A stretch of DNA of 64,000 nt from a virus. Positions within the stretch are counted from its first letter, which is position 1; each line of letters begins with the position of its first letter. The notes under the pieces are model-generated. The model saw only the letters and a program-made list of their open reading frames with translations. It was not told where the DNA came from and did no database searches. The stretch lies in IMG/VR virus record IMGVR_UViG_3300028653_000010. The stretch is one strand, 5' to 3'. Shown here in pieces: positions 13,521-20,381 of this stretch. Position numbers and translations under genes: made by a program.

Positions 13521-14660
13521 CTAGGACCAGATATTGCCGGATCTAATCAGCTCAGTCGAGCTGATGTCAAACCTGACCGGAAGCCTCTCGCAGGGGAAGT
13601 TACTCGGAGGCCTCAAGTCCCAAAGCGTGGTGAATACACCCTTCACCAACCGATCCGGAACGATGAGCTTGGTCCCGGTCTCCTTGAACACTCGTTGAAG
13701 GGCGTCAACACTGAACCCCCACTTGGCATCCAAGAGTTCAACGAAGGCGTCGGCTCCAAGAATGATCTTAGTATTCGGGAATAGCCTAGCCTTGTCCAAG
13801 TAATACGGGGCGCCCCAAGTGAAGATCACGTGTCGCCCTTTGAGCAGCTTGGCTCGCTTCAGCATATCCCAAGGGGTCAACAGATCCTTGTGAGGTGGGC
13901 TCACCTCGATAGCGAAAACCACCGGCTGGTGGTACTGCTTGGTGAAAGCATCGGCAACCCCAAAGTGTCCAAAATGAGGGACGGTGAACGACCCGGGGTA
14001 GACGCCAACACCCGATGCCTCGAAGTCGTGCATCATGCTATCCCAGCCGAGTCGCGCACCGTCACTCCGGAAGAATGGTCTCTTGCTCAGTAGAATCTTC
14101 GCTTGAGTGTTGCAATCAGTGATACAATCCTCAAACTCAACGTTATCAGGAAGAGTAATGATGTCTGTGGCCCCAACTGCTTGTAGTATGGCCTTCCCAA
14201 TCAGCATATCACAGGCTAGAAGATCTTTGAATCGAACCTCTTCTCCCACCCCCTTCTTGAACCTGGCATAGTAGACACAGACTAGGTCATCCGAGAAAAC
14301 CCCCACCCAGACCCTGTGCTCGCCTCTGTGGATCTCGTTCGTGGCTATCGCGGCCGTAGCCCCAATCCCAATCGTCCGCTTCCCATCGGGCTGGTAGGCT
14401 CGGTAATAGGCCCTCATGGCTTGCTCCAACGCGGTATCCATGCAGACGAAGTTCTCGGGGACGAACCCGAGATAGTCACTGGTAGCTTCCTTGGCGTGCG
14501 GGAAGTGTGCCTCATGAAGCACATTAGTTAGGCCAGGAATGGTGGCAAGACCTGCCACCATTCCTGAACCAGCGCTGGCGCCCAAGATCCCCAATCGTAC
14601 ATCCTTCGTTAGTAGTACCTTCAGGGCTTCACGTAATGCATGACCACTTGGGATTATCAT
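13521..14660 (-). CDS. CinA-like domain fused to an HxGH nucleotidyltransferase (NMNAT-like)
   Basis: N-terminal CinA-like region (LATIPGLTNVLHEAHFP, HRGEHRV); YPGSFTVPHFGH, LGADAF, DISSTELIR. Confidence 0.7.
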   Translation of the reverse strand: MIIPSGHALREALKVLLTKDVRLGILGASAGSGMVAGLATIPGLTNVLHEAHFPHAKEATSDYLGFVPENFVCMDTALEQAMRAYYRAYQPDGKRTIGIGATAAIATNEIHRGEHRVWVGVFSDDLVCVYYARFKKGVGEEVRFKDLLACDMLIGKAILQAVGATDIITLPDNVEFEDCITDCNTQAKILLSKRPFFRSDGARLGWDSMMHDFEASGVGVYPGSFTVPHFGHFGVADAFTKQYHQPVVFAIEVSPPHKDLLTPWDMLKRAKLLKGRHVIFTWGAPYYLDKARLFPNTKIILGADAFVELLDAKWGFSVDALQRVFKETGTKLIVPDRLVKGVFTTLWDLRPPSNFPCERLPVRFDISSTELIRSGNIWS

Positions 14661-15562
14661 ATAAACTCTGGCAGTGTAAAAGGGCGGAATTTAGGTTTCC
14701 CTACTACTTCCTTCAGCAACCTATCGAAGGTATCATGAACCTCACTCGCGTCAATAGGCCTCATATTGACATTTTCATTTAGGCAGAGTCCGAGTAGGTC
14801 CCTTATAGGCTCTGGGACCGAATCCGGATACTCCTTGGTTTTTAGGTCTCCACCAAGTAGTGCTTGAACGCACTTGGCCATCATATAGAGATCGGTACCC
14901 TCCCGCGCGGGCTCCGAGTGAAGGACTTCGGGTGGGTAGAAGTCCTCGTAGGTGGTGACCATTGCCGGAACTTTGATCCTTGTTGGAGTCGAGTAGGACC
15001 AATCGACTATCCGCCCCCCGTGATCTTCCAGGGTGAGTAGGATGTGTGGAGGCAAGATCGCTCCGTGGATAACCTTGTGCTTGTGGGCATACCACATGCC
15101 CACAAGGGACCGCTTGAACATCCAAGCCATGTCCCGATAGTCAATCCCCTTCGGGTAGGCCTTGAGAACAGTATCAAGAGTTACACAACCCTTGATCTCC
15201 TCGAAGATGTGGGCTTGCTTACCATCAACAAGGACTCCGATCCCACCATAACTCGTGGGGTAGTACTTGTGGAAGCTGCTTGGCTCACTGGGGTTTTCAG
15301 GGTGCAGCTGACCAAGTACTGACACGTCCCTCTCAATCAGATCATTGAATTCTCGGTCCTTAGCGATCTTCACCAAAACAGGCTTGGAGTTGTGCCCAGA
15401 CTCTCGATCCATGATGCGCTCGTAGCGGGTTCGAATCTCCTTGTGTTCAACTACCGCGGGTGGATTGGACAACGTCCCCTCAAAGATCTCGCTGATATCT
15501 CCTTCTATGACCTTGGCTCGGATGATCAACTCTCGGCCGTCTCTCAAGTTAATCTGGGTCAT
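14657..15562 (-). CDS. Ser/Thr protein kinase-like protein (probable pseudokinase)
   Basis: VLVKIA; catalytic loop HGAILPPHIL (no Asp/Asn); DWS in place of DFG; YPPE; TDLYMMA. Confidence 0.8.
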   Translation of the reverse strand: MTQINLRDGRELIIRAKVIEGDISEIFEGTLSNPPAVVEHKEIRTRYERIMDRESGHNSKPVLVKIAKDREFNDLIERDVSVLGQLHPENPSEPSSFHKYYPTSYGGIGVLVDGKQAHIFEEIKGCVTLDTVLKAYPKGIDYRDMAWMFKRSLVGMWYAHKHKVIHGAILPPHILLTLEDHGGRIVDWSYSTPTRIKVPAMVTTYEDFYPPEVLHSEPAREGTDLYMMAKCVQALLGGDLKTKEYPDSVPEPIRDLLGLCLNENVNMRPIDASEVHDTFDRLLKEVVGKPKFRPFTLPEFI

Positions 15563-16932
15563 ACTTCACGCTTATCCTCTGCTGTTGGACCAAAACCCCT
15601 GATGAGTACCCGAGATTTGAATACCTTCGATATACAGGCTTCTAGACGTCGTGTGCCACTAAGGGTTGTGTAGACTGGGGATACCGCCGATTGAACAGGC
15701 TCTGCCTCCTCCCCATACTTCTCTGACATGGCCTTGAGCTCGAGATGGAAGTCGTGACTAATCCCAAACCTTATACGGTACGTAGTACTGCCTAGGAAGT
15801 TATGGGCTAAACAAACCTGTTGGGGTCCGCTCACTTGGTCAAGATGATTGATTGCTATTGCATCCACACCATCCATAACAAACTTGGCGTACCTCGCCAT
15901 TATGAAGTCGAAGTAACCTAATCGGAAGGATCCCTGCCACTCCCCATCGACATTGTGGTCCTTGATGTCCAACTCGAGACCCTCAGAAGGTAGTGGTCCC
16001 GCTCCATGACGAGTATGATACGGACGAGTCACTCCAAGTCTGAGGTATTTAGCACCTGAGGTACCTGATATCTGCTTGAGAATCTTGATGGCATTCTCAA
16101 AGGTGCAATTGCTCCAAGTCGTGTGCGGATGAAAACCCCACTCTTCATCAAGCAATGCTCCCTGAGCCCCTTCAAAGATTATAGTGTCATCATCGTTGAA
16201 GACATCCCCAGTATCAATAGGCCTAACAATAGACACCCCTCGTTTCAAGAGCTCGGTTGTATCTTGGATGAAGCGATCTACAACCTCACCGTCTTCTAGG
16301 ATATCGAGATCAACCCCAACCTCACTACCCTTGGGCCAATCACTAACTAGAGTTCTAGCTTCCAAGCAAGCTCTGATCCGTATACCTCTGAGTTTACTGG
16401 CCAACTCATCTAAGTTGTTGAGGTCGCGCATTCGAATAGCCAACTCTGGATCACGGATGGCCCAATCGACTGTCTCACCTATACCCATTCCGCAAGTACC
16501 AAACTCCAACGTGGACTTCACTCGACGCTGAGTCTCTCGAAGGCGGTTGAGAGACACGTGAAAAGGAGTGGTCAGGAGAGAGTTTTGGTCGACGAACATC
16601 CGCTCGAAGGCGTCAGTCACCCCAAGGCTGATCAGGTGATCCCCCTCGGGTAACATGAAGGTAGGGTTCACCAACACATACTTGCTGAGGTAAGTCTTGG
16701 CACCAGCAAAAGTCCCAGAACCCCACTGAGAAAAGCAATGGTGTCTTCCGTCGGCTAGGACAACGTTATGCCCAGCTTGCGCGCCCCCATTGTACCTGAC
16801 GACCACCTTGGACTTGTGCTTACGACACAGGTAGTCGACAATCGAGCCCTTACCCTCATCCCCGAACCCAAGGCCAGCTACCAATACAGCTCTCATCATA
16901 GTTTCTAGGTGGTGGCTGAGATCAGCCACCAC
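15559..16932 (-). CDS. adenylosuccinate synthetase-like protein (divergent PurA paralogue)
   Basis: GDEGKG, RYNGGAQAGHN, EGAQGALLD, TRHGAGPLP. The Asp-binding TTGR loop is absent. Start may be ATG 16899. Confidence 0.85.
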   Translation of the reverse strand: MVADLSHHLETMMRAVLVAGLGFGDEGKGSIVDYLCRKHKSKVVVRYNGGAQAGHNVVLADGRHHCFSQWGSGTFAGAKTYLSKYVLVNPTFMLPEGDHLISLGVTDAFERMFVDQNSLLTTPFHVSLNRLRETQRRVKSTLEFGTCGMGIGETVDWAIRDPELAIRMRDLNNLDELASKLRGIRIRACLEARTLVSDWPKGSEVGVDLDILEDGEVVDRFIQDTTELLKRGVSIVRPIDTGDVFNDDDTIIFEGAQGALLDEEWGFHPHTTWSNCTFENAIKILKQISGTSGAKYLRLGVTRPYHTRHGAGPLPSEGLELDIKDHNVDGEWQGSFRLGYFDFIMARYAKFVMDGVDAIAINHLDQVSGPQQVCLAHNFLGSTTYRIRFGISHDFHLELKAMSEKYGEEAEPVQSAVSPVYTTLSGTRRLEACISKVFKSRVLIRGFGPTAEDKREV

Positions 16933-16944
16933 CTCCTTTGATAG

Positions 16945-20337: not shown

Positions 20338-20353
20338 TTGTCGATGTCGGTTA

Positions 20354-20359
20354 TACACC
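20354..20359 (-). promoter_or_regulatory. GGTGTA element of the nrtR-nadV operon
   Basis: GGTGTATAAC on the minus strand, between the two operators. Confidence 0.6.
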
Positions 20360-20364
20360 AACTC

Positions 20365-20381
20365 AGTGTCAAGTCTACACT
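20365..20381. promoter_or_regulatory. NrtR-type operator 2
   Basis: AGTGTC-aagtc-TACACT (one mismatch), 44 bp centre-to-centre from operator 1. Confidence 0.65.

Follow-up and report, generated by a model that had tools for sequence, protein, structure and literature searches.

Depletion of nicotinamide adenine dinucleotide (NAD+) is among the commonest anti-phage strategies of bacteria, and the known phage answers to it, the NAD+ reconstitution pathways NARP1, NARP2 and NARP3, have been described as unregulated enzyme pairs. Here we analyze a 64,000-nucleotide stretch of viral DNA from IMG/VR record IMGVR_UViG_3300028653_000010 (the window), in which seven genes on the minus strand (13521-20331) begin with a gene for an NrtR-family repressor and include two NAD-salvage genes, a small peptide gene and a trio encoding a vWA-domain protein, a PurA-like protein and a kinase-fold protein. 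This block is probably one transcription unit of a giant phage, driven from a GGTGTA element, in which NARP2-type salvage gated by the repressor is combined with a separate trio.

NARP2 consists of a nicotinamide phosphoribosyltransferase (Nampt) and a nicotinamide mononucleotide (NMN) adenylyltransferase (Nmnat), represented in Vibrio phage KVP40 by NadV and NatV (Osterman et al. 2024, bioRxiv 10.1101/2024.02.11.579819). The block resembles NARP2 in that a NadV-type Nampt that passes its family cut-off and a predicted adenylyltransferase with HxGH and ISST motifs are encoded in one phage operon. It differs from NARP2 in that this predicted enzyme is of the NadD type and has a CinA-like domain rather than a Nudix domain as its fusion partner, that four other genes lie between the two NAD genes, and that its own NrtR gene and a pair of predicted operators lead the operon.

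The regulatory part of the block has its closest counterparts in bacteria. The operators of NrtR repressors are mostly 21-bp palindromes with a GT-N7-AC core, sometimes in tandem; ADP-ribose abolishes DNA binding by NrtR, whose typical targets include nadM-nadV and prs-nadV (Rodionov et al. 2008, PMC2330246). As in the Shewanella nrtR-prs-nadV and Synechocystis nadM-nadV regulons (PMC2330246), the window combines a repressor made of a Nudix and a winged-helix domain with tandem GT-N7-AC palindromes, has nadV as the apparent target and carries nrtR within or beside the operon. Unlike these regulons, the window operon is phage-encoded, its operators bracket a phage-type GGTGTA instead of a sigma-70 promoter, its Nudix motif is intact, and extra genes without an assigned function appear to be co-regulated.

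Salvage clusters led by an NrtR-family gene also occur in other giant phages. In Bacillus phage G (gp273-gp283; locus L010, 200123-207372, where L-numbers are labels of compared loci), gp273 is a full-length NrtR-like protein annotated only as a MutT/NUDIX hydrolase, and it leads a cluster encoding a PncA-like isochorismatase, PncB, KptA, NadD and NadE, which together make a complete Preiss-Handler salvage route. The uncultured 636-kb phage LR756504.1 has the order nrtR...nadM-nadV. Unlike the window, the clusters of both phages are without the vWA/PurA-like/pseudokinase module and without a CinA-NMNAT fusion. Our literature searches returned no paper on NrtR-led phage NAD clusters, though such clusters exist in deposited genomes, and no paper on the vWA/PurA-like/pseudokinase module. 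An earlier reading of this DNA, made without database searches (the sequence-only reading), knew of no described NARP that was extended in this way and controlled by a sensor; the design is not unique, however, being shared by close relatives of the block, and phage G and the 636-kb phage also have salvage clusters with NrtR in the lead.

Repressor, operators and salvage enzymes

The open reading frame (ORF) listing places the seven co-oriented ORFs of the block, all on the minus strand, at 19537-20361, 18121-19527, 17929-18117, 16945-17910, 15559-16932, 14657-15562 and 13521-14660. They are as tightly packed as had been described (gaps of 3-18 nt or 4-nt overlaps): from nrtR onward the first four gaps measure 9, 3, 18 and 12 nt, and the last two pairs of neighbours overlap by 4 nt each. 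Inside the block, we found no intergenic GGTGTA, no sigma-70-type promoter above shuffled controls and no convincing terminator. The downstream limit lies where the sequence-only reading had put it, at a GGTGTA on the minus strand (13503-13508) that stands 10 nt ahead of a DNA methyltransferase gene (11690-13492).

The hexamer GGTGTA is itself overrepresented, with 41 copies in the window against 23.6 expected, a number that none of 100 shuffles reached. Fifteen of these copies are intergenic against about 2 expected, the intergenic share of the window being 5.2%. Up to 21 copies stand near a gene start of their own strand; many of these are 8-15 nt upstream, sometimes 25-35 nt, and a G-rich stretch often separates the hexamer from the start codon (examples besides the one downstream of the block are at 24227-24232, 34689-34694, 52305-52310, 54003-54008 and 63376-63381). 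Rather than as a ribosome-binding site, we interpret GGTGTA as an element that probably marks promoters or transcript starts in this clade of giant phages.

Just upstream of the first gene, a GGTGTA (20354-20359, minus strand) is bracketed by two GTGT-N7-ACAC palindromes 44 bp apart, as had been claimed. The distal predicted NrtR-type operator, GTGTAGACTTGACAC on the minus strand (20366-20380), has the GT-N7-AC core and lies upstream of the hexamer. The proximal one, GTGTCATGCTGACAC (20322-20336, minus strand), has perfect 5-nt arms, and its centre coincides with the candidate nrtR start codon, the ATG at 20331. The whole 64 kb holds 3 copies of GTGT-N7-ACAC against 1.07 expected.

The same palindrome recurs at equivalent places in related loci. 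Exact boxes are paired at nrtR in L013, L014 and L016, with a GGTGTA between or inside them; at nrtR in L033, one box is exact and a second is imperfect, while L053 has a single box between nrtR and nadM, and LR756504.1 a single box immediately before nadM. Overall, the palindrome stands by nrtR or nadM-nadV in six relatives (L013, L014, L016, L033, L053 and L008) that represent at least four distinct giant phages, while only one other copy was found across the loci of these relatives (about 21 kb each). This conservation speaks for an operon that is autoregulated by NrtR. In the Planctomycetota loci L077 (Gemmataceae) and L094 (Thermoguttaceae), both on contigs of metagenome-assembled genomes (MAGs), GTGT-N7-ACAC boxes likewise occur as a pair beside nrtR, at a distance of 23 bp.

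The first gene, nrtR (19537-20331, minus strand; alternative start at 20289), encodes a 264-aa protein with a Nudix domain (Pfam NUDIX PF00293, E = 1.3e-18) and an NrtR winged-helix domain (NrtR_WHD PF21906, 1.3e-23). It aligns over its full length with Shewanella NrtR (3gz5, 2.3e-35) and Bacteroides AraR (5bs6, 2e-41), so that its identification as a full-length NrtR-family protein is borne out. Its score against the NCBIfam model of the ADP-ribose (ADPR)-responsive repressor is 168 bits (2e-49), below the cut-off of 400. The Nudix box is kept (E-x7-REVxEE, here REVREE), and the catalytic motif is thus intact, unlike that of Shewanella NrtR and AraR.

The second gene, nadV (18121-19527, minus strand), encodes a 468-aa nicotinamide phosphoribosyltransferase with Pfam NAMPT_N and NAPRTase domains, which matches PHROG 448 at 1e-127 and passes NCBIfam PRK09198 (513 bits; cut-off 405). 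Aligned in one piece, it shares 37-52% identity with the NadV proteins from Myxococcus phage Mx1, Vibrio phages and T4-like phages. The felixounavirus-type (Bas63-like) phages, among which the Namat of NARP1 was reportedly described, have enzymes that align with it only in two pieces, at 25-28% identity. The NadV assignment of the sequence-only reading therefore holds, and the protein is nearer to KVP40-type NARP2 enzymes than to the NARP1 Namat.

The last gene (13521-14660, minus strand) encodes a 379-aa protein in which a CinA/PncC-like N-terminal domain precedes a NadD-like domain, a predicted adenylyltransferase for NMN or nicotinic acid mononucleotide (NaMN) on the grounds of its motifs and fold. 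Both motifs, GSFTVPHFGH (GxFxxxHxGH) and ISSTELIR (ISSTxxR), fall in the C-terminal domain. The AlphaFold2 (AF2) model, with a mean predicted local distance difference test (pLDDT) of 92, has two domains, and its fold matches include NadD at template modelling (TM) scores of 0.52-0.56 and CinA at 0.58-0.66, the latter identifying the N-terminal domain as a CinA/PncC fold; the family profile finds NadD at 8e-7 and CinA 2a9s at 1.3e-3. This agrees with what had been proposed for this gene. Homologues of the fusion number 122 in metagenomes, mostly on large contigs, and two in records of sequenced phages, both giant uncultured phages. PncC/CinA deamidases use a Ser31/Lys63 catalytic dyad (AtCinA numbering; PMC5384747). 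In the window protein a Ser aligns at the Ser31 position and a Thr at Lys63, while in the family (28 members) Gly predominates at the Ser31 position, Lys63 is not conserved and a different motif, HRGDHR, is conserved. Family conservation thus does not support the CinA-like domain as an active NMN deamidase, and we set this reading aside.

The block's proteins are on record from a 443-kb contig, which identifies the source as a giant phage, and the genes of the window are phage-like: a family-A DNA polymerase, a deoxynucleoside monophosphate kinase joined to an HNH/endonuclease VII-like domain, a DNA methyltransferase and several PHROG families found only in phages. A megablast search of the block against 50,697 phage records gave zero matches, so it has no close sequenced relative among them.

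The vWA, PurA-like and pseudokinase trio

Between the two NAD genes, the trio is encoded by three consecutive genes whose identities had been called correctly. The first of them (16945-17910, minus strand) encodes a 321-aa vWA protein with a metal ion-dependent adhesion site (MIDAS). Its AF2 model (pLDDT 88, predicted TM score 0.89) has an integrin beta I-like domain and the SpaC vWA domain as best fold matches (probability 1.0), and the MIDAS DxTxS residues D73, T75 and S77 are invariant in 28 homologues. The protein also has an invariant N-terminal MG and a C-terminal R-L tail. None of the Pfam vWA models reaches an E value of 0.01 with this protein, for which 1173 homologues were found.

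The second gene (15559-16932, minus strand) encodes a 457-aa PurA-like protein, a predicted GTP-dependent ligase that matches Pfam Adenylsucc_synt at 5e-56 and is without the aspartate loop. The protein has the fold of PurA (EC 6.3.4.4) and phage PurZ, and its 133 homologues retain the GDxGKG P-loop and its catalytic Asp as well as His41, Gln224 and a guanine-contacting Asp of the Asp333 type. Unlike PurA and PurZ, they have Cys for Thr129 and Met or Val for Arg131, and a conserved W-Q-G-x-F-R replaces the GATTGRRRR aspartate loop. Arg143 is also lost, and the gene always has a vWA gene as its partner. In the window protein, GEWQGSFR takes the place of the loop (E. coli 298-304, with Thr300, Thr301, Arg303 and Arg304). 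A genuine PurA was rejected, the scores of 138 bits for TIGR00184 and 159 bits for PRK01117 lying far below the cut-offs of 396 and 402. The PHROG label of PurZ, which would imply a diaminopurine genome, was likewise discarded (38.7 against 300 bits for NF038379; the residues disagree as well); among solved structures, the protein matches cellular PurA at 1e-28 and S-2L PurZ at 3.5e-4.

The third gene (14657-15562, minus strand) encodes a 301-aa kinase-fold protein (Pfam Pkinase, 9.5e-8) in which HGA replaces HRD. Across 102 homologues, conservation is high at K65 (100), E79 (99), H166 (101), A168 (94) and H173 (94). The window protein keeps the VAIK Lys and the DFG-type Asp, and has Asp at the alpha-C Glu position E79. 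Its catalytic loop reads HGAILPPH, with Ala for Asp and His for Asn, each in 94 of the 102; we therefore rejected an active Ser/Thr kinase and regard the product, judged by these residues, as a pseudokinase or an atypical enzyme. Of the 102 homologues, 56 have an HPD tripeptide, taken as a J-domain marker, among their first 120 residues; the window protein does not, and is without a J domain.

Searches for a wider affiliation gave little. The vWA, PurA-like and fusion proteins match no defence system in PADLOC, and an ESM Atlas search returned only the family's own unnamed clusters. In the TerY-P triad of the Ter stress-response loci, the vWA protein TerY stands with a Ser/Thr kinase and a PP2C phosphatase. 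The trio resembles this triad in the genetic coupling, at conflict or stress loci, of a vWA/MIDAS protein with a protein of the kinase fold; unlike it, the trio has a kinase fold without the catalytic Asp, no phosphatase, and a PurA-like enzyme as fixed third partner.

An alignment-based scan gave 63 IMG/VR loci, where single-protein searches had given only one or two. Nearly all of these 63 loci have the vWA and PurA-like genes and most also the pseudokinase gene. A synteny search found the whole seven-gene order preserved in L011 and L012 (nrtR-nadV-small ORF-vWA-PurA-like-pseudokinase-fusion). Other loci are rearranged: L013, L014 and L029 read nrtR-nadV-vWA...PurA-like-pseudokinase, L033 reads nrtR-vWA-nadM-nadV-PurA-like-pseudokinase, and L053 reads nrtR-nadM-nadV-..-pseudokinase-vWA-PurA-like. 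In L015, L016 and L017, nrtR directly precedes the vWA gene with no nadV, the PurA-like and pseudokinase genes following in L015 and L016. Overall, nrtR is present in 11 of the 63 viral loci, in at least four gene orders.

The module is also widespread beyond these loci. The vWA and PurA-like genes are adjacent in about 220 phage records, including about 200 Bxz1-like mycobacteriophages in which the order is kinase, vWA, small gene, PurA-like. In bacteria, at least 579 loci carry the module (one genome per species), mainly in actinomycetes, Planctomycetota and Chloroflexota. Among the best 80 of these at least 579 species-level loci, nrtR stands beside the module in 65, and the order is nrtR-pseudokinase-vWA-PurA-like in 51. 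This linkage is far above chance, since a match covering at least 80% of the window NrtR exists in only 7 of the 50,697 phage records. In the flanks of 58 bacterial loci, clustering gave no further neighbour in more than 13 loci except antisense-ORF artefacts inside the module, and none of six sampled flank neighbours was NAD-related. Five module-bearing phage genome records, two of them IMG/VR genomes that are judged to be complete (407 kb and 437 kb), are without any NAPRTase-family gene, and only one of the five has nrtR; the module is therefore not dependent on a phage NadV.

On this genomic evidence, the vWA/PurA-like/pseudokinase set is best described as an autonomous NrtR-regulon module, not as passenger genes. 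The sequence-only reading has to be revised accordingly: what it took for a four-gene module between the NAD enzymes is a three-gene core plus a clade-specific peptide, and that core, an independent NrtR-regulon unit in bacteria that also occurs in phages without NadV, is not an insert inside NARP2. Gene identities and folds are backed by data, as are the conservation of motifs and operators and the linkage of the genes.

Several observations touch on the history of the module. The closest IMG/VR relative, L005, is a 6-kb contig without nrtR whose vWA protein is 76% identical to that of the window; directly before its peptide, vWA and PurA-like genes, only the last 89 nadV codons are left (L005:3569-3835). 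This looks like a natural deletion that spared the module and lost the sensor and most of NadV. The vWA proteins of Planctomycetota loci and of one Chloroflexota MAG are among the closest bacterial ones to the phage protein (40-44% identity); together with the boxes of the Planctomycetota loci, this hints at a donor or host lineage. Finally, nrtX-nrtY are unassigned NrtR targets in Streptomyces, Frankia, Kineococcus, Proteus and Hahella (PMC2330246), and might be part of the vWA/PurA-like/pseudokinase module.

Small peptide, TRYERIL motif and flanking genes

The remaining gene of the block (17929-18117, minus strand) encodes a 62-aa peptide whose first 15 residues mirror the N-terminus of the vWA protein. 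It has a homologue in L005, and L011 and L012 have small ORFs in the corresponding place that keep an N-terminal MG and a YY/FY pair, with the whole MGGGSW motif in L012. We did not find it outside the phage clade of the window. It is probably a real, clade-specific gene, and as it is confined to one phage clade we rejected it as a core component of the module. Its C-terminus, DRYHRPWVI, is a variant of a motif found elsewhere in the window, and the small ORFs of L011 and L012 carry one or two copies of the form TRF[ED]RIL.

This motif, TR[YF][ED]R[IV][LM] (TRYERIL), occurs in frame in seven window proteins (339-359 and 20545-20565 on the plus strand; 15410-15430, 36154-36174, 49188-49208, 51088-51108 and 52350-52370 on the minus strand) and in none of the reversed-sequence control. 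Of the seven copies, five are within 3-10 residues of a C-terminus. One copy is in a small CxxC protein encoded divergently from nrtR, and is conserved in L005, L011 and L012; another, TRYERIM, is in the N-terminal loop of the pseudokinase, with the same motif in L016 and acidic variants in L011 and L012. No copy of the motif occurs in 0.9 Mb of module-carrying bacterial loci. TRYERIL may be a docking tag.

Two flanking genes encode proteins with an interrupted or a composite domain structure. The methyltransferase gene downstream of the block (11690-13492, minus strand) encodes a 600-aa N6/N4 DNA methyltransferase in which a Pfam domain of 221 positions is stretched across residues 25-413, which implies a large insertion inside the catalytic domain. 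Upstream, a single 456-aa ORF (21663-23033, minus strand) joins the deoxynucleoside monophosphate kinase domain to the HNH/endonuclease VII-like C-terminal domain.

Proposed mechanism and competing explanations

What the effector is, what the enzymes do, whether the operon counters defence and what chemistry the module performs are all inferred, and we picture the operon as follows. After entry of the genome, the operon would be transcribed from GGTGTA; NrtR would accumulate, bind both palindromes and shut the promoter from both sides, in negative autoregulation. When a host NADase splits NAD+ into nicotinamide and ADP-ribose, the latter would bind the Nudix domain and free NrtR, and expression would stay high. 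NadV would convert nicotinamide and phosphoribosyl pyrophosphate (PRPP) into NMN, and the NadD-like domain would adenylylate NMN (or NaMN), leading to the rebuilding of NAD+. A NARP2-type route would in this way be gated, sparing needless use of PRPP. Ungated NARP2 reportedly overproduces NAD+, consumes PRPP and proved toxic in cloning (Osterman et al., bioRxiv 10.1101/2024.02.11.579819), which provides a plausible selective reason for gating. Salvage of this kind under a probable ADP-ribose switch is plausible.

For the trio, the PurA-like enzyme, which keeps the GTP site and the catalytic Asp, His and Gln and has the conserved W-Q-G-x-F-R pocket instead of the aspartate loop, would most likely phosphorylate a nucleotide related to NAD or ADP-ribose on one of its oxygens, and some nucleophile that is not aspartate would then displace the phosphate. 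The vWA protein and the pseudokinase would serve as its partner or scaffold subunits. A bolder proposal, which we hold only tentatively and think unlikely to be correct as it stands, is that the trio is a GTP-driven pathway acting directly on NAD+ cleavage products, independent of NadV, and hence a fourth kind of NAD+ reconstitution. It might, for example, phosphorylate the 1''-hydroxyl of ADP-ribose so that nicotinamide displaces the phosphate to give NAD+, or re-aminate a hypoxanthine-containing dinucleotide. There is precedent for an accessory gene within a NARP operon: RyDEP lies inside a NARP1 operon and feeds the NARP pathway (PMC13232231).

A number of observations weigh against the picture of an ADP-ribose-gated NARP2 with a related trio, and some of them favour other explanations. 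About 200 Bxz1-like mycobacteriophages, and other phage records too, have the module but no nrtR, nadV or NMNAT gene, so its link with NAD is by association only. The block might then be co-transcribed mixed cargo, in which NrtR, NadV and the adenylyltransferase boost NAD while the trio has an unrelated task, for example in purine-nucleotide metabolism or protein modification during host takeover, and merely has the promoter in common. The Bxz1-like phages hold the module beside a polynucleotide kinase gene rather than NAD genes, four of the five phage records without an NAPRTase-family gene are also without nrtR, and PADLOC, Pfam and the literature show no NAD link for the vWA or PurA-like protein. 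Against such an arrangement stand the position of nrtR beside the module in so many bacterial loci (65 of 80) and in 11 of 63 viral loci with at least four gene orders, the rarity of comparable NrtR matches in phage records at large, and the one order in which nadM-nadV sits between the vWA and PurA-like genes. We consider mixed cargo unlikely, while granting it some weight. A further difficulty concerns the timing of control: as nrtR leads the operon that it would control, an incoming genome would express the operon first and ADP-ribose control would follow only after NrtR had accumulated. A self-encoded repressor cannot hold the operon silent at the moment of infection. In addition, L011 and L012, the closest nrtR-bearing relatives, are without an exact GTGT-N7-ACAC box, with variant palindromes in L012.

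The nature of the regulator and the route to NAD+ are also open to other interpretations. With its intact Nudix box, NrtR may hydrolyse its ligand, and its best solved relative is AraR, a sensor of arabinose and not of ADP-ribose. These features, along with the sub-threshold NCBIfam score, would suit a first gene that is mainly an enzyme (a pyrophosphatase of ADP-ribose or a related Nudix substrate, like the Nudix half of NadM) or that senses another ligand, the operon then not being induced by ADP-ribose. Given the full NrtR winged-helix domain, the paired GT-N7-AC-core palindromes conserved at nrtR or nadM-nadV in several phages and the presence of NAD-salvage genes, which are classic NrtR targets (including nadM-nadV and prs-nadV; PMC2330246), we find this improbable. 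As for the enzymes, the adenylyltransferase domain resembles NaMN-preferring NadD and its CinA-like partner belongs to a family that does not keep the Ser31/Lys63 dyad, so that the route from NMN to NAD+ is uncertain. A deamidated route could be drawn instead, in which NadV yields NMN, the CinA-like domain NaMN and the NadD-like domain nicotinic acid adenine dinucleotide (NaAD), with amidation to NAD+ by host NadE or, speculatively, by the PurA-like enzyme activating the carboxylate with GTP. All of the best fold and profile matches of the C-terminal domain are to NaMN-preferring NadD, the N-terminal domain has the CinA/PncC fold with a Ser at the Ser31 position in the window protein, and phage G has an NrtR-led PncA-PncB-NadD-NadE cluster. 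However, the dyad is not maintained in the family, which conserves HRGDHR instead, and the module also travels with a NadM-type NMNAT without any CinA-like domain; this route thus appears very improbable to us.

Taken as an NrtR-regulated extended NARP2, the operon includes a component that is uncharacterised and could prove new. If our reading is correct, these viruses would gauge the NADase response of the host and spend PRPP on NARP2 only when needed. If the trio does act on NAD+ cleavage products, this operon would combine it with NARP2 behind a single ADP-ribose switch, and it would be common to bacteria and hundreds of large phages. The operon ties a widespread trio (at least 579 species-level bacterial loci and about 220 phage records) to NAD/ADP-ribose biology, and offers a compact, clonable context in which to find its substrate.

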